A stretch of DNA of 64,000 bases from Owenia fusiformis (GCA_903813345.2 CAIIXF020000001.1:9362001-9426000); one strand, 5' to 3'. Positions 31,463 through 64,000 are shown, counted from the first letter of the stretch. The notes: generated by a model not told the origin, from the letters alone. Translations and numbers: made by a program.

Positions 31463-34400
31463 TAGACAGGTTCCAATTCAAATAATTCAAGTTTTTGAGG
31501 CATTTTTTAGAAAAAGCAACAGACCTATTTTTACTAGATCAGTTTTTCATGCTGATAAAGATATTAAAAGATGACAGCTCAACGGGGTGGTCACGACATT
31601 ACATTTGGGCATTTTTACCCCCCTAGGAAAATATTCTAGGGGGTACTATGAAACTAGTTCATAACTCAAAGGATATATGAGCTATTGTTCTGAGTTGTAC
31701 ACCATACATTGCTAGTACAAATATGAATACTATCCTAAAGTTATGGGTTGATACCCTTATTGGTCTCAGAAAAATACAAAAAACAGGAAAAAGATACGCA
31801 ATTTTTGTCTTGCCAATTTTATATTTGTAGCTTCAAGCACAATATGACAGCTTTAACAGCTCATAGTAGTATTCTAAAAACATTTCTAAGCTATGTGTGG
31901 TATTGTAATACATCTATTTTAGTTATGAAGTACTATTTTGTAATTTTAATATGACTTTATAGTGCCCTACCCCTGGAAAATTGAAGAAAGTGGAAGTGGT
32001 GAATTTTATCATTTTGCAGCATTAAGTTAGAAACATGTATTGATAGACACAAAATCAATAAATTCATACCATCATCAAATGTTAGGTGACATTCTAATTC
32101 ATTTATTACTAAAATATAGGACTTGAGATATTTTATATGTAAGTTTTCAATTAAGTACATGTATCATAATGAAATCACATACTAGAGAGGTTGGCATACA
32201 GTCTGGATATTGACATAAAGTCTAAACATTATAATCATCAATTGATCTCATTTGAGCAACTAGACTATGGTGGTCATCATGCACAAGTAATGTACAGTAG
32301 AACCTGCTAAGTGGAACACCTCTGTAAGTGGAACACCTCCCAAGTGGAACGCCTTTTCAAAGCCCCGTTTTAAAAACCCATTGACTTAATGTTAATTGAA
32401 TCTCTGTAAGTGGAACACCTCCAAACTTGAACAGTGAACACCCCATATTGAAAAATTAACCTGCTAAGTGGAATAGTCAATTTCCATAGATTTCAATATT
32501 GATATATGTAAACAGAATTAATCTCCTTCAATGATATCTGGGTATGAAAACAGGTAATACTGTGATAATTGGCAAATTAGGATTTTAATGGATTAACCTC
32601 CTGTAGAGGTCAACATGTGATGCAACCAATAATTAATTTGATTATCAGCAAATTAAGATTTCATAAGATTTTCATTCAGAAAATTGGATTAACCTCCTGT
32701 AGAACTGGACACGTGATGCTACCACTAATTAATATCCCTTGCTGTTTGTTTCAAACTTAATAAGTAAGATTAAAAATGTCATTTAAAAACAATTGAATTA
32801 TTAACAGTAGGAACAAGTCTTTAAAACTTAATTGCCTAATCCTTGTACCTGAGACTAGCACAATTAGGAGGATTAAGAATATCAGAAAACATTTTTGGCA
32901 GAATGAGGAGGATTAAGAATGTCAGATACCTTTTTGAGTTAAATAAATGGATTATTAATGGTATATACCTGCCCTGTAATGAAGGGAGAATCATATTTCC
33001 AATGATACATATAAATCCTATATTTGATTTTGTATGTTCCCTGTGAACCCAAAACCTCTGTAAGTGGAACATCTTCTAAGTGGAACGCAGAACGGAGAGT
33101 GTTCCACTTACACAGGTATTTACATAATAATGTTATAAAGGAGCATGTAGGTTATCGCAAACAACTTCAGACAATTCTAACTTGAATTATGAATATTTAG
33201 ATCTATTCATTATCTTCAAGAAAAGTAAATATAATGATTAATCAGACTTAAGTGATATTAAAGGGAATGGCCCAATCACCATACTTTTTACTAAAAATGT
33301 TGACCTAATTTTTACCAAAGATGCAACCTTTAATTATATTGTTGAATGCATAATTAGAATATGCTTTGAGACATGTTCTATTTCCTAAGAGGAAAAGTGG
33401 ATTGCTCCAGGGACTTTAAAGACACTGAATTTGGATGACCAAAATGAACTGAAACAAATGGATAGCATGAATTTTTTCAAAGGGGAAATAACATGGGGAA
33501 CACAAATTTTGGAGGAATTCAGTTTTCTTTTCAAGAGCTATTTGATACATTAAAATAAAGAATAGTAATGCATTAAACATTGTTAAAATGATTGCATTTT
33601 TGGTGAAAATGAGGTCAACAACTTTGAACAAATATATTGATGGGTTGATTGCTAGTGAAATATCTCCGAGTCCGATTGACTTTGTTATCCCTGTATACCT
33701 GTCTTCATGGTCAGAAAATAGTCATAATCAAAGATATAACTGTCTGAAATTGTTTGTGATAACTTACCTGAACCTTTCCAGGTCAAATCAGGAGTGACAA
33801 AATAATTTCAACCAAATTTTTGACATGTCTTCAAATACGATAATATTTTCTTCATAAGATAGAGTGTCACTTGTGAAATTTATTGATTGACCTGAGATCT
33901 TACCATATCTTTATGACAGAGAAGCGAAATAGCCATATTGAACTTTAATGATGTTTGTTTAATTGTTGTTTGCCACTTTTCGACAATTGTCAAAATTTGG
34001 GGGTTTGGGGGAGGGGTACAATTAGGTTAAAAAATTCACCTGATTCAGACTATCCTTAAATGAGCACTGATTCACCCGAGAGCATAACTTTTTCAAAACA
34101 TGTAAGTGTTATTTTTGGACCACTCACATTAATGTTTCGTCTAATTTTCCCTTAGAGTTTCATCATCATTGTCCAAATCTTTGTTGAGATATTTGAGATA
34201 TATGTATGTTCATTATTAAAATCTTGCCTTCCTTTGCAGTTGGAAAAGATTCGGCATTAGGTGTTATAAGTCCTAGAGCACGATAAATAAAAAAATAACA
34301 ACAAAATGACATAGAACTGACAGACGTTTTCTCCTGTGCGTGTCAGCCTTGGTCTACCAAATTGCTATTCAGTAGGAAGAAACTCATTTTTCAACTTCAA

Positions 34401-35405
34401 CTTCTGTTTTAGAGAACAATAGAACAATAGAAAAGATTACTTTACCATAATTTTAATCATCCCACATTGTAGACATATTTAGAATTAAAAATATGAAGAG
34501 AATGACAAAACCTCTTAAAACACATTTCTTAGGAAACAAATAGTGTCGTATTCTTGTTACTATGGCAACAGAGTTTTTTCTTTTTGTCATTTTTGTCATA
34601 CAGATTACCTATCATACCAGGACCAAATCCTGAAAATTTGAATTCAGTATCTTCATTACTAGTATCTTAGATATATAGGTTTCTTATAGTGTCCCCTGCA
34701 GATTTTATCGGATGATATAAGGAAAATGCTCTGAAGAGGGTTGCCCAAGGATGCCACTTAACAGTTCTGGTATTTTTGAGGTCCCAACCCTCTATTCATG
34801 GGAATAGTTAAACATTGTAAAGTTTCTCATGGTTAACTGAGAGAATTGATTGTATCTTCAACTAAGAAGACAATAAAATGTTAAAACCAGAAGAAAAGTC
34901 ATATTAAAATTACAAAATAGTACTTCATCACTATAATAGATGTATTACAATATCACACATAGCTTGGGAATGTTGTTAGAATACTACTTTGAGCTGTTTA
35001 AGTTATCATAATTTGCTTGAAGCTACAAATATAAAATAAGCAAGAAAAAAATGACAAAAATTGCATATTTTTTTCTAATTGTATTTTTCCGAAATCAACA
35101 AAGATATCAACCTATAACTTTAGGGTAGTATTCATCTTTGTACTAACAATGTATGCTGTAGAACTCAGAACAATAGTTTATATATCCTTTGAGTTATGAA
35201 CTAATATTATAGTACCCCCTAAAATAATTCCCTAGGGGGGTAAAAACGCTAAAATTCAGTGTCGTGACCACCCCGTTGAGCTGTCATCTTTTAATATCTT
35301 TATCAGTATGAAAAACTGATCCAGAAAAAATAGCTCTGTTGCTTTTTCTAAAAAATGCCTTAAAAACCCTTTCCCTTGAGATATTCTGAAATTGGAACCT
35401 GTCTA
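31463..35405. mobile_element. Academ-like non-autonomous element
   Basis: TAGACAGGTTCCAATT termini, 3-bp TSD TAA, ~500-bp imperfect TIRs; inserted into an older foldback (~30890-35475). Confidence 0.7.
32295..33124. mobile_element. pogo/Tigger-like MITE
   Basis: TA-CAGTAGAACCT terminus, repeated AAGTGGAACAC, degenerate right end. Confidence 0.6.
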
Positions 35406-35541: not shown

Positions 35542-35657
35542 GATTTATCAGAGTCCCTCTTTACCTAACGTTTTTGAGAGATTTATCAGAGTCCCTCTTT
35601 ACCTAACGTTTTTGAGAGATTTATCAGAGTCCCTCTTTACCTAACGTTTTTGAGAGA
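35542..35657. repeat. 38-bp tandem repeat x3
   Basis: GATTTATCAGAGTCCCTCTTTACCTAACGTTTTTGAGA, three identical copies. Confidence 0.9.
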
Positions 35658-37191
35658 CTCTGATATATCATGAGGCAGAACATGTTCCTAGCCAGTGCAT
35701 TCTCCAAGTAAATCAGTGTATATGGAGGAATAAATTAGTGCCTTAGAATGCACCGTCCTGTTATCCCCTTTGTAAACTTTAATTCAATGAATTCATTATG
35801 TGGAAAACTTTTATTTAACTTGATGGTTCTTGTTTTTATATTGAAAATGAATAACTATGATAATGTTGACGTACTTCTTTTTTCTTATTGATTTCCAATT
35901 TATAATTTTAAACAATAATTATCATGCAAATGTCAACACTTGGATTATTTGGGAGGGCATTGTGTTTGGTCACACTCATTAGGCTTTGTCTGCTTATGTA
36001 ATCATGCAACTGCAGGTAATGCCTTCCCATGATACTCATGGTCAATAGAACTCTGTAAATAATTTGATTGGTCCGTACATTTTAGGGTTAAAGGAAACAT
36101 TTATTACAGTCAGTATCCCACAGTCTGAACTATTCCAAAAGGATAGTAAAGGCTGTGGATCCCACAATGGCACAGAGTAGTTTTCATTCTCATCAATACA
36201 TCTTTGCCTTGAAATCATTCGTGAAACATGTGGTTTGAACTTTATGGAAATTTGCTTTATTTTGACACACCTTTATTTAACTTATACTGTCTTTAAGGCT
36301 GCCTTATCTGAAACCCCGAAGTGTCTCTTGTTTCAAATGTTTAAACAATCAAGTCTCGTCTTGCCTTTATTTCAAACTCTAATTTCCAGACTCGAGTCCA
36401 ATCAAAAATGAATTATCTACATGGAAGTTTGTGAAGTCCTTTATTTCTGAAACTGTTTTCAATACTTAATATTTTCAGGTAACTGCTTTACAAAATCATT
36501 GTGCATTGTGAATAGTAGTTACAGAAACGAGAGTTCTGACGCACCTTTAACATTGAGTCCTATGGGGAGGGACACGATTTTTCATAGTACCCTCCCTAAC
36601 ATGGGCTCCAATGGGGAGGGACATCTGTGAGCCTCCCTGAGCTCGGGAGGCACATACGGGGACCCCATCCCTCCCCCCTCGGCGTGGTGGCGTGTACATA
36701 TTTCGGGAATCTCGGGCCCTAAGGGTAACGGACGCCCTACCCCACGTTTGTACGTTTACTGTAAGGGATAATATTCGAATTCCCGCCAAAAACAATAAAT
36801 CGATAAACCAGTACGCGTCGTAAATGTCACTGCCTTATTTATAAAGTGCGGCCCAGGCGGATTATCGATTACCTATCAACCAGGCGTTTCGTACTCGCGA
36901 GGTCTTATCGTTTTAAGGTCATCCAGCTGTCAGTTTACGAAACAAATTACTCTGGACTGTACTTTAAAGTGCGGACCTAGCTCGATTATCGATTATCAAT
37001 CAACCATCCATCAACTTTAATTAGTGTAACGTCCTTCATCGATTTAAGATCATACCGTTTAATGGATGTTACATTTGGTTGGGATAAATATTTATTTGCT
37101 AATTCGTCAACACACTTCTTTTCAAAATACATCAACTATAATACATATTTACATTATAACATTCAAAATTCTTCATTGAATCATACACAAA

Positions 37192-38289
37192 TTACAAAGG
37201 TATTAAATCGGAATCTTTAACCCACGAATCAAACTTTTTTGGCCAATATTGCCAACGCACTAAATGTTCCCGTTGCCCTCGTCTAGTTCGTGTTTTCAAG
37301 ATTTTTTCTACTTTCCAAATATCATCTTCATTCGCTTGTACTCTTTGAAGCTCCGATTGGTAAAAAGTACCCTTAATGTCTTCATTTTGAAAATCATTTA
37401 AACGATATAATGGGAGGCCCTGCCTAATAAAACGTTTCGTTACTTTAAAAATTTCCCCTGTCCAATGTTGGTCGTATTCTCTACTAAAAACATGTCTCGA
37501 CTGGGTAATTCTTACCAGAGCTCCAATGGGGAATTTAAAGATGTGATTAGATTTGGTTTTAACGATAGTTGATTTAGGATAATACATCCGCCACCAAATA
37601 ACCAATTCATCGTCTTTAGATACATTTTTAGGAGCCATTTTTATACCCCTATGCCAAGTGGCGTTATAACTCTTCACAAAGTTTTGTAAATTGTCTATAA
37701 ATCTATGGTTCTGTTTGTACGTGATATACCTCATTATTTTAGTCTTTAACGTCTTTATCAATCTTTCTGCATAGTTGGCCTTGGGGGTATTACCCGTAAC
37801 AAAATGGCGGACTCCCCATCTATTCAACAATGTTTGTACAACCTTAGCGCGGAATTCTTGACCTTTGTCCGTCCTAGTGACATCTGGTTGTCGACCTTCT
37901 TTCAATATATCATCGAAAGCCTCCGCCACTGCCTTTCCAGTTTTGGAGTGTAGCGGTCTAACCCAGGCAAAGCGAGACATAATGTCAATCGCAACCAGGA
38001 TATACTTTATCCCGTCATTCTGCGATGATATATTAGAGACATCCATAAGATCTGCATCCCATTGTTCGTCAATATGCGAGACATATACTTTGTTACGAGC
38101 GAATCGTTTCTTATAAGGTCTCTGTAGGCCATAAGCTTCTTGATTGTCCAGCCATTTCTTTATCTGATAACGGGACAGCTGGTATTTCCCATCATTTAGT
38201 ACAGCTCTATAGAGTTTGTCTGGTCCAGCAAAGGCTCCAGAATTTCGACTGTCAAAGTATAATTTCTTTAAATAGTCTCGATATGCCAT
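37192..38289 (-). CDS. Maverick/Polinton retroviral-like (rve) integrase with C-terminal chromodomain
   Basis: 365 aa intact; DDE residues in WDADLMD / RTDKGQEF / YAERLIKTLK; chromodomain VEKIL..LVRWQYWPKKFDSWV. Confidence 0.95.
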   Translation of the reverse strand: MAYRDYLKKLYFDSRNSGAFAGPDKLYRAVLNDGKYQLSRYQIKKWLDNQEAYGLQRPYKKRFARNKVYVSHIDEQWDADLMDVSNISSQNDGIKYILVAIDIMSRFAWVRPLHSKTGKAVAEAFDDILKEGRQPDVTRTDKGQEFRAKVVQTLLNRWGVRHFVTGNTPKANYAERLIKTLKTKIMRYITYKQNHRFIDNLQNFVKSYNATWHRGIKMAPKNVSKDDELVIWWRMYYPKSTIVKTKSNHIFKFPIGALVRITQSRHVFSREYDQHWTGEIFKVTKRFIRQGLPLYRLNDFQNEDIKGTFYQSELQRVQANEDDIWKVEKILKTRTRRGQREHLVRWQYWPKKFDSWVKDSDLIPL

Positions 38290-38348
38290 CTTACACTGTC
38301 GGAATCTGACTCCTTAATGACGATCTCTCTTTAAATTGCTAATATTTA

Positions 38349-39700
38349 TCACTCAGTGCTTGATTCAACAGCCTCGTTTTCGGATTCACTCTGTTCTTCC
38401 TCGGAGCTACTTTCCTGGTCTGTATCCTCTATAAAGACCTCGTCAAACTTGTGTTTGTTTTTTAAAAGTGTCTTCCTAATGGCTAAGTTCACAGAGACAC
38501 CCCTCCTCATCATATTATTTATTGAATCAATTATATTTCTGTGTAACGCATTGTCTTTTACATCAACCGTTAGCTTGACGAATTGTTTATATCCTTTCAT
38601 AAATTCTTCCTTATTCTTCGACAATAGTTTATTATCTGCCTTTTCTACAGCCTCTGTCTTATCCATCCCTCTATCCATATACTCATCCACTTTACGTCGG
38701 TGGTCTTCCTCATTCTGTCTTATAGACCACTTCTTTAAAAATGCAAATGTTTCATTTGCTTTCAAATCACCATCATCGTCATCAACGTCATTGTCTTTGT
38801 CTTGAGGAATCTTCTCCTCAATATTTTGGGTAGATTGGGTCCTCATCCTCTTGGGTAGTGGTCCCTGATCTTGACACCACTTTTTTATATGCCTCTGTAA
38901 GTCGTGAATGCTATCAAATACTAAACCACAGTCATCACAGGAAACCATGCTGTCTTCTCGAAATTCACGTTCCATGTAAGGGTAGTTCTTAACATCACTA
39001 CTATTTATAAATGTTGTCGTCGGATAGTCAACTTCTGAAATACCCTGTCTTTCAAGTAAGTGTTTTGAATCATTCATTGGTTCCTTGAAGTTGCGGGAAT
39101 CGTGATGACTTTCAAATTCAACTTCACTTTTAGTAAAGGCATTTGGTTTCAATCTGCTGTGCTCCGAAGTTTCTTGCTTCAGATCAAGAAGCAGGTAACC
39201 ATAGGGTCGACTAGTTGCGTTGGTATATGCTCTGACCAACTTGTTTCCATTTCCGGGGTACATCTGCCTCGATAAGAATGCCACCTGTTGGCGATCTCTC
39301 GGGTTATTAAACAGTATCATATAGTGAGAGTTTAAGCTCATCGATCTATTCATTTTTCCTTGATGATACATATTCTGGAGTAGGCATATCACAGACAGAT
39401 TTCGATGGTGACTGCCTTTGCTATAGAGATCACATATCCGTTGATCATTTGTTGCCTCATTCATAAGATCATCGAGAAGTATCAAAGTAGGAACTGAAGT
39501 GTCGAGGTATCTTGAATCATCAATATCCTCTGGTATTCCCTTCACAAATTCCAAATGTGGGTATTTTCTTAGCTCTTCGTAGGCAGGCTGCCATTGACCA
39601 TAACACCAGATGATTCTTCTAGGAATTGGGGATATATACCGTTCAACATTTTTGATCAAGTGCTTCATAAGCCAGGTCTTCCCCGACGATGTTGGTCCGG
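38349..39700 (-). CDS. Polinton A32/FtsK-like packaging ATPase, exon 2 (Walker A to C-terminal ZnF, helical and acidic extension)
   Basis: Begins after ttttcAG: (A)GPTSSGKT; Walker B LILLDD; SHHRNLSVICLLQN; NSHYMILFNNPRD; CDDC..F....L.RH...WC finger. Confidence 0.92.
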
Positions 39701-39802
39701 CTGAAAATACAACAAAAAATATTTTTTTAATAAATTGACATGCTCTCTTTCTATATTTAGAAACCTATCAGACTTTTAATTTCAACATGTCCATGTCTAT
39801 AC

Positions 39803-39938
39803 CTGCTATCATAGTAAACGGATGTTTCAGCATAACATCAGACTGATGCATTTTTTCTCCATGAAACTTATTCATATGCCTTGATAGGTTATCACCTCTC
39901 GTAAAATTCACACTACACTCAGAACAATTGAAAGACAT
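39803..39938 (-). CDS. Polinton ATPase exon 1 (C2H2 zinc finger plus LKHPFTMIA)
   Basis: MSFNCSECSVNFTRGDNLSRHMNKFHGEKMHQSDVMLKHPFTMIA, then a G|GT donor; phase-1 join restores HPFTMIAAGPTSSGKT; spliced protein 495 aa. Confidence 0.85.
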
Positions 39939-40109
39939 GTTGTCTGTTCAAGATCTATCAGTAAAATGACTCAAAACATGGACAACTTAAAATATATAAG
40001 AATATTCTAATGTGCAGTATTGTGATTGGTTCAAAATGTGTCAATTAAGATCAATTGTAAACATAAACAGGCATTTATAACATTATAAACTATTGAATAT
40101 TAAAGTAAA

Positions 40110-40442
40110 GGGAGGGGAGGAGGTTTGGAAGATGGAGAAGAAACAGGAGGAGGTTGGGTGGAAGTAGGAGGAGGTATGAGGTAAGGAGGAGGTAGGGAGG
40201 AGGTGGGAGGAGGTAAGGAAGAGGTTGGAGGAGGTAAGGAGGAGGTAATGATGAGGTAGGGAGGAGGTAGGAGGAGGTGGGAGGAGGTAAGGAGGAAGCG
40301 GGAGGAGGTAGAGAGGAGGTGGGAGAAGGTAAGGAAGAGGTGGGAAGAGGTAAGGAGGATATAGGGAGGAGGTAATGATGAGGTAGGGAGGAGGCGGGGG
40401 GAGGTAAGGAGGAGGTAAGGAGGAAGTGGGAGGAGGTAGGGA
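40110..40442. repeat. Purine-rich (GGAGGAGGT[A/G])n tandem array inside the mini-Maverick
   Basis: Directly visible 10-11-bp imperfect units. Confidence 0.9.
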
Positions 40443-43400
40443 AAAGATGGCTAACTTCCGCTTTAAAACCTACCCAGGCCGACTAAAAGATGCCTCACTT
40501 CCGCTATGATGTCATCCTCTTGCCCAGACAGATGCAAAATGGCTGACTTCCTGCTAGAAAGCTTCAAAATGGCCGACTTCCGGTTAAATGGCTGACTTCC
40601 GGGCTGACTTCCGGTTAAAATGGCTGACTTCCTGTCAAAATGGCTAACTTCCGGAACGTATAGTCGTGGGGTAGGGCGTCCGTTACCCTTAGGGCCCGAG
40701 ATTCCCGAAATATGTACACGCCACCACGCCGAGGGGGGAGGGGTGGGGTCCCCGTATGTGCCTCCCGAGCTCAGGGAGGCTCACAGATGTCCCTCCCCAT
40801 TGGAGCCCATGTTAGGGAGGGTACTATGAAAAATCGTGTCCCTCCCCATAGGACTCAATGTTAAAGGTGCGTCAGAACTCTCGTTTCTGTAACTACTGTG
40901 AATCTTCATTACCTATCTGATACATATTTTCCTCAGCAAACTTCATTTTCATAGAACACATGATGAATCTTTTATTCCACATTCTCAATTTTGCATCAAT
41001 CATTCAATTATGTTTCAAGGATTTTTTCCCTGGCTCACTATGAAGGATTCCATTGACATTAAAATATGTCATGGGAAAGTAGGTCATAAGAAAGAGGAAC
41101 ACTGAGTTCCACCCATTCTAATGATGCAGGTTTTGTGCTAATTTTGAATATCTTTATGGTACTTTTACAGGTAATGGGCTAATGGCTTTAGCAAATTGCA
41201 GAAATGTTAAAGTTAGTTTTTTGGTCAAAGTAGATTGTGAAATCACTAAAGATAAGTCATGAATCTTATATCATAAATGTGTTTTAAATCAACTTGTTTA
41301 CCTGAAAATAAAATGTGATCACAGCTTTTCTGAACATGCGGATGTACCCGAATGGTGTCTTATTCATAATGTAATAAATGAAATCATTGTGGTATATATG
41401 TGGAGTCTATTTCCCTTATAATAATACATTTACTTTAGTACATGGATTCTCTCCTAATATTATTTCCTTATAAATATTCAAACTTTAATCAAAAGCAGTT
41501 TCAAAATTATCGTATATTGTATTTCACCTAAAATATCGTATATGGTAAAAGAGCTGTGAAAAATATTGTATATGGTATAAAAGGGGTGAAAAAATATTGT
41601 ATATGGTATAAGAGAGCTGAAAAATATTGTATATGCATTTCCAAGACCCTCTATACACCCCCCCCCCTATCTTGCATGACTCGTTCATAAGAATTCTTTA
41701 ATTCTACCTCTTTCCCAATACGTCCTCAGACAGACAAGAAATTGAACACCCGTTTGTTTGCGTGACAGAATATGCCACGCTAAATACGTATACGCACTTT
41801 CTCTGATTATTGTCAAGCAAATACCTTTTAGGAGAAGAACATAAAAAATGCCGGAAACGAATGCCGACAAATAAATCCAAATTGATGAAGTTTAGAATGT
41901 TTTTTTTACGATTTGATAAGAGACAGAGACTAAGAAATTAAATGCGACGAAATATTCTGACAACGTTAAAGTTCTATGCGTTAACTCATTTTATCTGTTT
42001 CAAAATGTTTCATTTTATTTTGCTTGTAAAAAAGAGATTGAATAAGATAAAATAAACTATTCCGTAATATATATTGTGTTTTAATAACCTTTTTAGAATC
42101 ACAATGTAAAATAAATCCCCCGTTCCTGCCATTTTGGTAATTACACCATATAATGGGTGCAATTCAAAGTGAGAGATCTATGAACATCAGAATGCGTCCA
42201 TCCCATTAATTTGGCCAAATACAGTACATGGCATGAAACTGGCGTAAGCTTAAGTACGTCCCCCCTTTCTCTGGTAAATTATGACTATAATACACGTGTA
42301 CACTTTCCCCTCGTGATAAAGGTGCATCTAATTCAGCTAGTAATCTAAAACTTCCTTTGGAGCTGCTCCATGGAGTTAAGTTTTACTATGCAAAAGGACA
42401 AGTCAGAATTTATGCAGATAAAAAGGTTATGCAACATTATGTCTGTATGTGGGTGGGTAGCATTTTGTTTAAATTTAAATGATGACATTGAATGTTAAAA
42501 AGTTTTATCTCAAGAGATAGAACCATATAGCAATAACTATCTTTTTCAAATGAAGGACATAGAGCCTTATTGCATTAGAATTCTCCTATTTCTGTTGGAG
42601 ATACAGCTTTATAACCTTAATCTTTGGAAAGAGCATGGTGAAAATTACATTTTCTTCATTTCTTATCTCAATTCCAGACTCATATAATTGGAATGAATGA
42701 ATCAAGTAACGATGATTTTTCTGAATTTTCTGAAACTGGCGACACCTCTTTGAAAGGCTGTACAAAATAATATATCGTTCAAGATGGGTTTTGTTTATCA
42801 CTTTCTCTTAGAAACACACGGTGACGAAGTAAAGTCGTTTGGAAATTGAATAAAATGTGATAAGAAGTACCTAGAAACATGACTTGGAAATTGAAATTCA
42901 AAACGGCGACAGTAATGATCGAATGATTCATTTGGACTCTTTAAAGCCCTGGTAAAAATACATTAATGAAATTCTCATTAAAAAATGAGCGTTCACATAC
43001 GGCCTTGGGGTTATTGATGAAATATATAAAGAAGTTAAAGGTACACCACTAATTTTTTCCGAGATAACATACGGCGACATCAAATGGGACTTTTTTTGAA
43101 TTCAACGTGAACGCGTATGAAACAAGCTAGGGACGTGCTGACATTTATTTAAGGAATCAAATGGCCACGAATGATTCGCTGTAAATGTAAAATTTTTGTG
43201 TCTTTTGGGGACAACAAACTTTCGGAGAGTTCGGTGAGGGTCTAGGGGTGAGTGTATGACTGTATTGATTTTTATATCCCCAGTAAGTCCGAATCCGCCG
43301 GTTAAAGATTGTGGGATCCACAGCCTGTACTATCTCTTGGAACAGGCATTAGGTAAAGGAACATATATTCGGTGAAGAGAGGCTCTGGTAAATCAAGATG

Positions 43401-60228: not shown

Positions 60229-60334
60229 TATTCATGAAAAACGACTTAAAGGTAATTGCCATATACATGTACATGTTCTCTCAATCAACTGATATTTTCC
60301 AGTCTGGTGCAGTAAAAACTGGTATAGGTTAATC

Positions 60335-63300
60335 ATGGATGTTGACATCAACTCATGGCGAGCAAGAATAGGACACTTTAATACAACACACACACCACTA
60401 CAAAAGGGAACTGGAACCTGCTATGGTAAACCCAATGCAAATGTTGATGAGAGTATAAACTTACTGTATCTCCTCCTGTACATAATTTCTATTCACATTG
60501 ATCCCTTGGTAGAATTTTATCAAACAGCAAGTTTTATTCCAATCATCAACTCGATAATAACAAGAATTTTAGCTATGGTTGTTCTACTTTACTCACTCTT
60601 ATTACTCATGACTTTACTTTGTAAGCCTTGTTTGTTTCTGCTGAAATATTCAGTTAATCTGCAGGAAACTGGTGAAACTTTGGCACTATTTTTATTGATA
60701 ACCAATCTAATCATTGAAATTCCAGACCTGAGTTACCTATTACTGCAAGCTGGAGATGTTGAAACAAATCCTGGCCCAGAATTGACCGCACAAAGCGACA
60801 TGAAATTCCTTTTCTCCAACATCAATAGCATTGGAAGTAATGAAGGCACCAGGTTTGAATCTCTCAAATTAAAAATAAGGGATAGAAACATCTCTGTAGC
60901 TGGTCTTTGTGAGGCTGGTAATTTAAATTCAAAAACTATCTCAGACAAATATACAATTCCAGATTACCATACCCCCATGTATCATCCAGGGGGCAGAGGC
61001 CTTATGATCTATGTAAAAAGTGATCTCATATGTATTCCAAAGCCTGAATTTAACACAGAAAATAGCCTGTGGGTAAATGTTAAATTAAAAAACACATCTG
61101 TTTTATATGGGGTGCATTATCGCTCCCCTAGCATGAATGCAATCCAAGAAGCGGCTTATTTTGAAGAGTTTAAAGAGAACTTAAAACTTGCCTCCAAATT
61201 TAAATGTGACTATTTGATCATAAATGGAGATTTTAATTGCAAAAATAAAAAGTGGTGGAATGAAGGAACAACTGATTCAAAAGGAGCAAAATTAGATACC
61301 ATACTTACAGAACTTAACCTTTTCCAATTAGTCAAGGAACCTACTAGAATCACTAGAAATTCAAGAACTTGCATAGATCTTTCAATAACAGACAAAGCAT
61401 TTCTGGTTAAAGAAATATCAGTCATTGATCCAATCGGAAACACTGATCATTCAACAATTTTGACCACTCTTCCACTTAAACTAGACAAAAAACATGTGAC
61501 TAAAAAAACAATATGGAATTATGATCTTGGAGATGTAGATAAAATAAACTCAAATATCAGCGATATCGATTTGACCGACATTTTCATAAATAACAATGAA
61601 AATGTGAACTTAACTACTGAAAACTTTACTCGCGATGTTTTTGACATTTTTTCCAATAACATTCCGCAGAAAACTTACATAACCAAGGCAAATGACCAGC
61701 CATGGATTAACAAAAAAATCAAACTTGAGATCAGAAAAAAAGAAAAACTTTTTCGTAAGTCAAAATCAAATGATGACCCTGTTCATTTTGAAAATTATGC
61801 CAATCAAGCAGAGCATGTAAAGACTCTTATTAAAGAAGCAAAATTAACTCATGAGGACAAATTAGTCCAACAACTTAATGAGTCCACATGTAAGGGCAAG
61901 CAATATTGGAATATTGTAAACTCATTTCTCTCCAAAAAATTCAATGACTGTCTCCCTTGTCTCAGAAGTGAAACTTCATGTTCTATTGCTACATCTGACA
62001 CTGAAAAAGCCAACCTTTTCATGAACCTTTTCTCTGGCAAATATCACCATGATGAGCTTCATGGTGATATGGTCTTTCCTAATTTTCCAAAAAGGTGCAA
62101 TCAAGAAATTGACAATATTACGACAACACCTGATGAAATAAATAAAATCATACAGTCTCTTGAACGTGACAAAGCATGCGGTCTTGATGGAATAAATAAC
62201 AGAATGGTGAAAATTGCCTCAGCCACTCTATCAATCCAACTTTCTTCGCTTTTTAACTTTATTTTCCAAAAGTCAGAATTTCCTGACTGTTGGAAGTTGG
62301 GAAATATTTCTCCAATTCATAAGAAATCTGACCGGTCATTCGTTGAAAACTATAGGCCGATAACATTATTAAGCACTTTCTCCAAAATTTTTGAAAAGGT
62401 ACTCCATGCTAGAATCATGAAACACCTTATGGATAATGACCTCTTATACAAGTTTCAGTCAGGTTTTCTCCCAGGCCACAACACAGAACTTCAACTTTTA
62501 GCAATAACTGACTATATTTATCATCAAATGGAACAAGGAAACTGTATTAACTCGGTATATCTCGACATTTCGGCTGCGTTTGATACCGTCCCGCATTCGC
62601 TCTTAATACACAAAATGAAATCTTATGGAATTAACGGCAAAACAATTGATCTTTGTGATTCTTACCTGAGGAATAGAAAAGTTTGTGTATCAATCAATGA
62701 CCAACATTCTAAATTCTCAGACAACAACTTCATAAACTCTGGTGTTCCTCAAGGCTCAGTAATAGGCCCCCTCATGTTCCTCATCTATATAAATGACCTC
62801 CCAGACAACTTAGACTCTGAAGCATACATATATGCTGATGATACATCTCTATATTCATTTTTTCATCCATCAAATGCTCAAACAGATCAGATTCAAAATG
62901 ATCTTAATAAAATTAATCTGTGGTCAAAGAAATGGTTCCTTAAATTCAAACCTTCCAAAAGTGCCCAAGTCATATTCCACTCAAACCGGATCAAAAACTT
63001 CCAAAAAACGCCACTTTATTTTGACGGAGAAGTCATTCCATGTAAAACTTCACACAAACATCTTGGATTTATCCTTGATGAAAATTTGACTTATGAAGAC
63101 CATATTAACTATCTTTCACGGAAAGTTCAAAAACTCCTTAATCCACTCAAGTATCTGTCAAATAGTGTAAGATCCAAACACCTTGAAACAATGTATAGCT
63201 CCTATGTAGCATCAAATTTTGACTACTGCAGTGCCTTGTATGGGTCTGCCTCATTAGCCCTATTAGCAAAACTTGACAAATTGCACTATCAAGCAGGTGT

Positions 63301-64000
63301 AATATGTGCAGGTGTTCTTCATGGCTCAGATACCTCCAAAGTTTTTCAATGCCTTAACTGGAAAACCCTTAGTCAAAGGAGAAATGAAAAAAATGTTCGG
63401 ATAATGTTCAAAATAAACAAAAGAAATGTAGCACAATATATATGCGACATATTTGACAAATATAAAAACCCAGCCACCAGACTACTGAGACATTCTATGC
63501 CTTACAATATTCCAACTAATGTTTCTATCAGACTCCTTAAAGCCCCTGTCTTAAATATTATAAAACAATGGAACAACCTTAGCCAACTTATAAGAGAATT
63601 ACCAACCATCTCTAGTTTTAAAAATGCTGTTCGGTCAACAATTCTCCCAAACATAAATTTCATTCCAACAACCAAGCTAAACTTAACAAGGTCAAATGAG
63701 AAGATTTTAAACAGACTTCGTGTCGATTTCTTTTTAAAAGAACACTTTTTCTCTCATAATTTTATTGGTGTAACCGACAACAAGTGTCCATGTGGATCCC
63801 CTGAAAATACTAAGCACTTTCTCCTTTCTTGCCCCCGCCATACTGATGATAGGACAAACATGATTACTGCACTTAGACAAAACAACCTTCTCTATGATGA
63901 GAACATCTACACCAACCGAAATGATCAAGTCAAATATCTCCTCTATGAAAATACCCTTAGCCGTGATTCACAAAACTTACTTCTTAACATTGTGCTCAAC
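60335..64000 (+). CDS. Intact CR1-like LINE polyprotein: hydrophobic leader, 2A, APE endonuclease, RT, CCHC (3' end outside window)
   Basis: All motifs fall in one frame (>=1222 codons; absent from the ORF track because no stop occurs): MDVDINSWRARIGHF, LLQAGDVETNPGP, GDFN, TDH, NYRPITLL, GVPQGS, YADD, CPCG..HFLLSC. Confidence 0.93.
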   Translation, partial: MDVDINSWRARIGHFNTTHTPLQKGTGTCYGKPNANVDESINLLYLLLYIISIHIDPLVEFYQTASFIPIINSIITRILAMVVLLYSLLLLMTLLCKPCLFLLKYSVNLQETGETLALFLLITNLIIEIPDLSYLLLQAGDVETNPGPELTAQSDMKFLFSNINSIGSNEGTRFESLKLKIRDRNISVAGLCEAGNLNSKTISDKYTIPDYHTPMYHPGGRGLMIYVKSDLICIPKPEFNTENSLWVNVKLKNTSVLYGVHYRSPSMNAIQEAAYFEEFKENLKLASKFKCDYLIINGDFNCKNKKWWNEGTTDSKGAKLDTILTELNLFQLVKEPTRITRNSRTCIDLSITDKAFLVKEISVIDPIGNTDHSTILTTLPLKLDKKHVTKKTIWNYDLGDVDKINSNISDIDLTDIFINNNENVNLTTENFTRDVFDIFSNNIPQKTYITKANDQPWINKKIKLEIRKKEKLFRKSKSNDDPVHFENYANQAEHVKTLIKEAKLTHEDKLVQQLNESTCKGKQYWNIVNSFLSKKFNDCLPCLRSETSCSIATSDTEKANLFMNLFSGKYHHDELHGDMVFPNFPKRCNQEIDNITTTPDEINKIIQSLERDKACGLDGINNRMVKIASATLSIQLSSLFNFIFQKSEFPDCWKLGNISPIHKKSDRSFVENYRPITLLSTFSKIFEKVLHARIMKHLMDNDLLYKFQSGFLPGHNTELQLLAITDYIYHQMEQGNCINSVYLDISAAFDTVPHSLLIHKMKSYGINGKTIDLCDSYLRNRKVCVSINDQHSKFSDNNFINSGVPQGSVIGPLMFLIYINDLPDNLDSEAYIYADDTSLYSFFHPSNAQTDQIQNDLNKINLWSKKWFLKFKPSKSAQVIFHSNRIKNFQKTPLYFDGEVIPCKTSHKHLGFILDENLTYEDHINYLSRKVQKLLNPLKYLSNSVRSKHLETMYSSYVASNFDYCSALYGSASLALLAKLDKLHYQAGVICAGVLHGSDTSKVFQCLNWKTLSQRRNEKNVRIMFKINKRNVAQYICDIFDKYKNPATRLLRHSMPYNIPTNVSIRLLKAPVLNIIKQWNNLSQLIRELPTISSFKNAVRSTILPNINFIPTTKLNLTRSNEKILNRLRVDFFLKEHFFSHNFIGVTDNKCPCGSPENTKHFLLSCPRHTDDRTNMITALRQNNLLYDENIYTNRNDQVKYLLYENTLSRDSQNLLLNIVLN

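Follow-up and report, generated by a model that had tools for sequence, protein, structure and literature searches.

The window, by which we mean the whole 64,000-nucleotide stretch of Owenia fusiformis DNA that was analyzed, contains at 36514-40897 an element of 4,384 bp that has terminal inverted repeats, a flanking 6-bp duplication and, as the only long sense-strand frames between the repeats, an integrase gene and an ATPase gene. The ATPase frame is broken immediately ahead of its P-loop by 102 nt that have the form of a short spliceosomal intron. The features of the locus are as follows:

36508-36513: left target-site duplication, GTGAAT (the flank ends GTGAAT and AGTAG follows)
36514-36756: terminal inverted repeat starting AGTAGT, 243 nt, 98% complementary to 40655-40897
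37091-37096, minus strand: AATAAA, the first beyond the integrase stop (motif scan only)
37192-38289, minus strand: integrase gene, uninterrupted, with an rve core and a C-terminal chromodomain (37204-37317); ATG at 38289
38349-39700, minus strand: ATPase exon 2 including the stop, with the P-loop ATPase domain and a C2HC-type finger (38874-38942)
39675-39698, minus strand: Walker A codons GPTSSGKT, in which T3, G6 and K7 do not vary across alignment A1
39701-39802, minus strand: candidate spliceosomal intron, 102 nt, GT...AG, phase 1, with in-frame TGA TAG
39803-39938, minus strand: ATPase exon 1, with the ATG, a C2H2 finger (39861-39932), a linker and the HPFTMIA strand
40132-40462: GGAGG/CCTCC-rich tandem repeats, 17 overlapping copies at spacings of 10-11 and 21 nt
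40655-40897: terminal inverted repeat ending ACTACT, 243 nt
40898-40903: right target-site duplication, GTGAAT, the same hexamer as on the left

The integrase matches the rve family at 42.5 bits (cut-off 32.6) and the Chromo family at 27.9 bits (cut-off 25.1). Among the frames of at least 130 aa within 36514-40897 none encodes a polymerase, a protease or a capsid protein; a frame of 156 aa (38335-38805) runs antisense within the ATPase gene, and the non-coding part of the element amounts to only about 1.1 kb. With both frames open, the repeats 98% alike and the 6-bp duplication intact, the element is a complete, recently inserted two-gene Maverick derivative and not a virus-like Maverick. A preliminary description of this DNA had spoken of a core virion-morphogenesis gene of a Maverick, a label that does not suit an element of 4.4 kb holding an integrase and an ATPase only. 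By the same signs of open frames, similar repeats and an intact duplication, the element apart from its interruption looks alive. The interrupting stretch was found in contigs of 20 sequencing-run entries, whose run types are guesses and none of which is listed as RNA.

The ATPase stop and the integrase ATG are 60 nt apart (38290-38348) with no AATAAA between them, and the two genes look like one transcription unit. Acceptors upstream of the integrase ATG were also considered as partners of the exon-1 donor; none was convincing by eye, and this candidate was dropped. The GGAGG/CCTCC repeats occupy the region between the right inverted repeat and the start of the ATPase gene, where they may be subterminal binding sites or plain low-complexity sequence. 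Elsewhere in the window, long inverted repeats at 31491-35367 (289 nt, 89% alike, and 158 nt, 91% alike, their arms separated by about 3 kb) enclose no frame of at least 130 aa and possibly represent a non-coding inverted-repeat element, and three perfect copies of a 40-nt sequence, 38 nt from start to start, are found at 35542-35657. An open frame of 1,236 aa at 60293-64000 runs off the end of the window and by eye resembles a non-LTR retrotransposon, with an endonuclease-like N-terminus and a reverse-transcriptase-like YADDT motif.

Anatomy of the ATPase gene and its family

Exon 1 (136 nt) extends from the ATG at 39938-39936 on the minus strand through 45 codons to LKHPFTMIA plus one G, and encodes a finger of the pattern C-x2-C-x12-H-x4-H that scores 24.6 bits against the Pfam family zf-C2H2, for a cut-off of 25.2. 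The candidate donor is the GT at 39802-39801 (GTATAG, in the context CAG/GTATAG, with the slash marking the boundary), which lacks the usual G at +5. The candidate acceptor is the AG at 39702-39701, ending TTGTATTTTCAG, in the context TTTTCAG/CC; 12 of the 15 bases before this AG are pyrimidines, and a CTGAT, read off the sequence by eye, lies about 65 nt ahead of it. Exon 2 opens at 39700 with CC GGA CCA, which reads (A)GPTSSGKT across the joint, and its 3' part codes for a helical C-terminal domain and an acidic tail. On these points the preliminary description was right: when the coordinates were re-read, the donor at 39802 did follow LKHPFTMIA, the acceptor ttttcAG did end at 39701, and removal of the 102 nt, in phase 1, joined exon 1 to GPTSSGKT at the spacing found in the family. 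It was right also that the ORF as listed lacks Walker A, since the first ATG (39668) of the downstream open frame (38349-39764) comes after the GPTSSGKT codons (39698-39675).

The spliced product would be 495 aa long. In the unspliced frame 11 further codons are followed by TGA TAG, just as had been described, for a total of 56 aa, and because no ATG lies between these stops and Walker A, unspliced RNA would be limited to this peptide. The peptide had been called zinc-finger-only; its length agrees, but it is not confined to the finger, since exon 1 also contains HPFTM, the first strand of the ATPase fold. The length of the interruption, 102 nt, is divisible by three.

Of 3,734 candidate proteins, 495 matched the exon-2 product at E up to 0.001, and an exhaustive search with the same product gave 7,164 cluster representatives, 619 of them at E up to 1e-30. 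The best ATPase homologues (477-531 aa) are about 38-44% identical over their full length and share one order of parts: an N-terminal C2H2 finger, a variable and often proline-rich linker, HPFTM, the P-loop ATPase and then a C2HC-type finger, beyond which lie an acidic stretch and a helical C-terminal domain. Of the 102 homologues in which over 40 residues precede the P-loop, 57 show the N-terminal finger pattern, and the few homologues with a named source are from bivalves. Besides Walker A (GPTSSGKT), the window's ATPase has the Walker B motif LILLDD. Its domain scores 19.4 bits against Pox_A32 (PF04665), below the cut-off of 22.8; among 14 aligned family members, 11 match Pox_A32 (E up to 0.01) and 7 match Adeno_IVa2. 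The AlphaFold model has a mean pLDDT of 68.7, rising to about 85 over the ATPase domain (residues 11-190), and its best Foldseek match is the genome-packaging NTPase B204 of STIV/STIV2 (E 3.4e-4, TM 0.58 on the target, probability 1.00), followed by HerA and EccC/EssC ATPases. A sequence search of the PDB with the family profile returned zinc-finger matches only, plus P-loop noise at E of about 0.2. The family also includes short ATPases, 44-46% identical to the window's in the ATPase domain, which likewise open with HPFTM (for example M-x5-HPFT in locus L081). The interruption therefore falls inside the ATPase fold, between the first strand and the P-loop, and not at a domain border.

The spacing of these motifs is nearly constant in the family. 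We fetched 258 proteins, of which 151 fit the strict pattern G-x4-GK[ST], the other 107 mostly having a different first residue; within the 151, an HPFT-like motif precedes the P-loop in 118, 20 start no more than 14 residues from it and 13 have other upstream sequence. The distance from the motif to the Walker G is 8 residues in 117 of the 118, and removal of the 102 nt matches it. Eleven GT-AG pairs nearby would leave an open frame, and the pair 39802/39701 alone restores this spacing. When five contiguous homologues were aligned by tblastn, 34 gap columns (34 codons) appeared at this place, as a single run (39803..39702) in two of them and split 19+15 in three. At 24.5%, the G+C content of the 102 nt is below that of the exons (36-40%) and of the window as a whole (35%), and stops occur in all three of their frames. 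Among 127,796 random 102-mers of the 64-kb window, 331 start with GT and end with AG, and 4 have in addition at least 12 pyrimidines among the 15 bases before the AG. Rfam gave no match in 36400-41000 at E up to 1 and the predicted fold of the 102 nt is nothing unusual (z = 0.02), so they are not a self-splicing or structured RNA. They do not recur in the 64-kb window, where the best match elsewhere extends over 17 nt, and they have no inverted repeat and no flanking duplication beyond CAG. Comparison with homologous sequences thus supports reading the 102 nt as an insertion relative to the protein family.

The window copy was also compared with further copies or alleles found in reads that bear the same species label, from which 40 differences are listed and 16 more exist. 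Among those listed, 20 fall in ATPase exon 2 (15 silent and 5 replacing, P = 1e-7) and 18 in the integrase (12 silent and 6 replacing, P = 3e-5), for an expected silent share of about 0.2; at an expected share of 0.33 the values become 1.5e-4 for exon 2 and 3.6e-3 for the integrase. One near-identical contig (X1) retains the 102 nt. Its departures from the window number 4 in 1,102 exon-2 nt, all of them silent, and 3 in the 102 nt (2 substitutions and 1 single-base insertion), a contrast between intron and exon with a Fisher P of 0.016 from an approximate table, in which one of the 7 differences is unlisted. Judged by these substitutions the coding sequence is under constraint, as at least one pair of intron-bearing copies indicates. 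Such constraint, together with a P-loop that cannot be translated from unspliced RNA, favors splicing.

Related loci and their interruptions

Of the 81 related loci that were fetched, one came from viral contigs; genome contigs yielded 4 further loci, short or distant, that added nothing on introns. The P-loop region could be read in 77 loci. It is contiguous in 70 (66 by pattern and 4 with an APFT variant judged by eye) and interrupted in 4 (L014, L016, L080 and L009), while 2 loci have too little upstream sequence and L034 starts near a contig end. The preliminary description had proposed examining whether the intron position is conserved in homologous elements; it is not, as none of the 77 loci is interrupted at the window's exact site, and what they contain instead are GT-AG interruptions 12 and 18 nt away. 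Those of L014 (224-310, 87 nt, G+C 22% vs 45%) and L016 (220-631, 412 nt, G+C 20% vs 36%) both have the form GT...AG and cut the same codon, GPT/ACGKT, in phase 1 and 12 nt downstream of the window's site, despite an identity of only 53% between the two proteins. L080, whose GT-AG interruption is likewise AT-rich and in phase 1, has an acceptor (near 415) in common with L016. The interruption of L009 (2522-2683), GT-AG and AT-rich, lies within the G of GKT, again in phase 1, 18 nt downstream of the window's site. The integrase gene is interrupted as well in four loci, at TDKG/QEF, by GT-AG stretches of 113-158 nt (L014:2108-2220, L016:2421-2538, L070:1612-1724 and L029:1617-1774), and the window's integrase has none there. 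All interrupted loci stem from two sister metagenomes.

A quick maximum-likelihood tree built from 91 ATPase domains puts the three intron sites in three places, each beside contiguous relatives, and at least three changes are needed to account for them (SH-aLRT 86-97). The window's own sequence forms a long branch of unsure placement; the relatives that the tree places closest to it, P0001 and P0002, are contiguous. From these interruptions and their placement we conclude that the family acquires and keeps introns of the spliceosomal type and that the window's site is its own.

The gene arrangement of the window recurs in these loci: 25 of them offer 1.5 kb or more of downstream sequence, and in 21 of these a same-strand integrase follows the ATPase. 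The spacer between the two genes is 57-332 nt in the long-ATPase class (11 loci) and 0.7-1.3 kb in the short class. Short ATPases adjoin a DNA_pol_B_2 polymerase in L057 and an adenain-like protease in L081 (12.3 kb, with inverted ends). L003, a metagenome contig of 10.6 kb with inverted-repeat ends, carries a DNA_pol_B_2 polymerase, a long finger-ATPase and an integrase. Its ATPase (516 aa, Pox_A32 28.9 bits) has the domain order of the window's and is followed by a same-strand integrase next to one end; unlike the window element, L003 has the polymerase in addition, on the opposite strand, and its P-loop is uninterrupted. The window element looks like the integrase-ATPase end of an L003-type element whose polymerase half is gone. 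Inverted repeats of 63 nt, 82.5% alike and about 6.2 kb apart, were also seen in L049 (173-6456), which has a short ATPase, an integrase and four more frames (263, 142, 441 and 157 aa), none of polymerase size; L049 may be a polymerase-less, capsid-bearing relative. The ends of 12 contigs were inspected for poly(A) as a check for transcripts, and none was found.

Transcript evidence and competing explanations

Two raw RNA-seq runs of the same species label, X22 and X24, were read to 6-12% and gave 67 and 73 reads, respectively, on 37100-40100. The preliminary description had named junction reads across 39803/39700 as the check on splicing. Neither run lists such an exon-exon junction, at a depth over the site of 0-3 reads and a listing threshold of 3, and at this depth, which leads one to expect no more than one to three junction reads, the result neither shows nor excludes removal. 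The reads of X22 are nearly all in the sense orientation for a stranded library and cover the integrase and parts of exon 2, not 39726-39927. In X24 the bin of the intron has a depth of about 2.7, next to exon bins of 2.3 and 3.1, and three or more reads cross the 102 nt, mostly in the antisense orientation; three reads carry intron variants, which means that unspliced molecules exist, and two of these three are antisense if the library is stranded. The finding of unspliced molecules and of no spliced ones is weak evidence against efficient splicing. The X1 contig that keeps the intron is uninformative in this respect, because the type of its run (RNA or DNA) is a guess. A further observation is that the X24 reads over 38110-39927 run mostly opposite to those of X22 and to the integrase reads of X24 itself; if the library is stranded, this pattern represents antisense RNA over the ATPase gene.

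Taking gene structure, family spacing and constraint together, we think that the 102 nt are probably a spliceosomal intron of the U2 type and that the zinc-finger/A32-like ATPase gene holding it belongs to a reduced derivative of a Maverick (Polinton), a reading in which splicing itself is what we infer. Since the element moves as DNA, the intron would be carried along with every copy. A host Pol II transcript would be spliced at CAG/GTATAG ... TTTTCAG/CC, so that the P-loop of the 495-aa protein would be preceded by the start codon, the finger and strand 1 (HPFTMIA), and RNA left unspliced would yield the 56-aa peptide only.

The absence of junction reads, the RNA reads that run through the 102 nt and the contiguity of the nearest relatives, none of the family being interrupted at this site, would also be expected if the 102 nt were an insertion that is never spliced, interrupting the ATPase of this copy and its close kin while the signs of selection came from uninterrupted master copies elsewhere. 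The youth of the element, with repeats 98% alike, fits this too, since open frames alone prove little in a young element. Against such an insertion stands the rarity of exact GT-AG ends with a pyrimidine tract, found in 4 of 127,796 random stretches, or about 1 in 10,000 if four equivalent placements are allowed for, as we presume they should be. It would moreover have come without an inverted repeat, without a duplication beyond CAG and without another copy in the window, and the second copy that keeps it differs in exon 2 at silent places only. We consider this explanation rather unlikely. A different origin for the transcript, in which the acceptor at 39701 would be used with another upstream exon from a host or read-through transcript and exon 1 with its finger would lie outside the main product, was raised by four X22 reads that match exon 2 as far as the acceptor (39702) and continue for a median of 58 letters unlike exon 1 or the window's intron. 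The loose letters would end in AG, a frequent exon ending, and their 30-letter consensus has no match in the window even with 3 mismatches allowed. The reads, however, derive from a diverged copy about 92% alike (4 of 5 carry five exon-2 variants), the consensus has an in-frame TAA and so cannot supply the start of the P-loop, and in homologues the finger and HPFTM lead into the P-loop without a break; this origin appears very improbable.

It is also conceivable that the intron is real and that its retention is regulated by tissue or stage, giving either the full ATPase or a 56-aa finger peptide, or no product at all after nonsense-mediated decay. A length that is a multiple of three, early in-frame stops, the weak donor GTATAG and the presence of unspliced reads are compatible with such control, and the introns that three lineages have within 18 nt around the P-loop codons might reflect selection for a control point near the 5' end. 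A lone C2H2 finger with one strand of an ATPase fold would nevertheless make an unlikely regulator, the 56-aa product has no counterpart among the fetched homologues, and with no junction read there is no ratio to compare between tissues. We regard regulated retention as improbable, and the splicing switch like that of the P element put forward in the preliminary description as pure conjecture for a product that consists of one finger and a fragment of the ATPase fold.

Comparison with known systems

Intron-bearing genes are familiar from cut-and-paste DNA transposons, among them the P element (with its regulated third intron), Ac and En/Spm, and the introns survive transposition because the intermediate is DNA. 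The element described here resembles these in being transposed as DNA with a gene that would need host splicing. It differs from the P element in its retention product, which would be a peptide of 56 aa where the P element has a shortened repressor that includes a DNA-binding domain. Introns occur in many DNA transposons, so that this one by itself is of modest weight; less ordinary are the retention of the ATPase in a two-gene element and the crowding of three intron sites at the P-loop codons. To the A32-like FtsK-HerA ATPases, including B204, poxvirus A32 and adenovirus IVa2, the window's ATPase is linked by its fold, its Walker motifs and the Pox_A32 and Adeno_IVa2 matches of its aligned relatives, its own domain scoring below the Pox_A32 cut-off. 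In contrast to the packaging ATPases of this group, it has no adjacent capsid gene and possesses extra fingers and a C-terminal domain.

With animal Mavericks (Polintons) the element shares (AGT)2...(ACT)2 ends, a 6-bp duplication, an rve integrase with a C-terminal chromodomain and an A32-like ATPase; the available text on vertebrate Mavericks gives the same end motif and perfect 6-bp target duplications (PMC8097293). At 4.4 kb rather than 15-20 kb, it is set apart by having no polymerase, protease or capsid frame and by an ATPase with two zinc fingers, a helical C-terminal domain and a candidate intron. The remark in the preliminary description that introns are unusual in core Maverick genes is in keeping with published accounts, which, in the portions available, call the core genes intronless in vertebrates (PMC8097293) and in a nematode Maverick element (10.1101/2022.07.12.499685). 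Surveys of protists assume intronless core genes (available text of PMC10120064), and in the same source Maverick gene finders often assume no introns; if core genes do carry introns, as they may in the window and in L009, L014, L016, L029, L070 and L080, searches on that assumption miss or truncate them. In the papers found, as far as their accessible text goes, we met neither a spliceosomal intron in an animal Maverick core gene nor a two-gene element of integrase and finger-ATPase, for both of which supplements (PMC4028283 Table S1 and the element lists of PMC8097293) may hold cases. Introners have been described inside Maverick-Polinton-like proviruses of dinoflagellates (accessible part of 10.1101/2025.03.18.643946), and the likeness is that of spliceosomal-type introns within Maverick-like integrated elements; introners are multi-copy intron-generating transposons, whereas the 102 nt are single in the 64-kb window, and the closest homologues that carry a name come from bivalves, which points to an animal host.

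According to the available text of PMC4028283, absence of the capsid gene in Polintons tended to go with absence of the ATPase, and the window element departs from this in having retained it. It is puzzling that purifying selection should maintain a presumed DNA-packaging ATPase where capsid genes are missing. MuB, TnsC and IstB, which are partners of their transposases, offer an analogy for the pairing of ATPase and integrase, on which the former packaging ATPase of capsid-less Maverick derivatives, by now fused to zinc fingers and a helical domain, might serve jointly with the integrase in transposition, and the recurrent P-loop introns might make mobility dependent on splicing; this is a speculation to which we give little credence. 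Were it true, the partnership would explain why the ATPase alone was kept beside the integrase, and the three intron sites within 18 nt, on three branches, would tie an active ATPase to host splicing.
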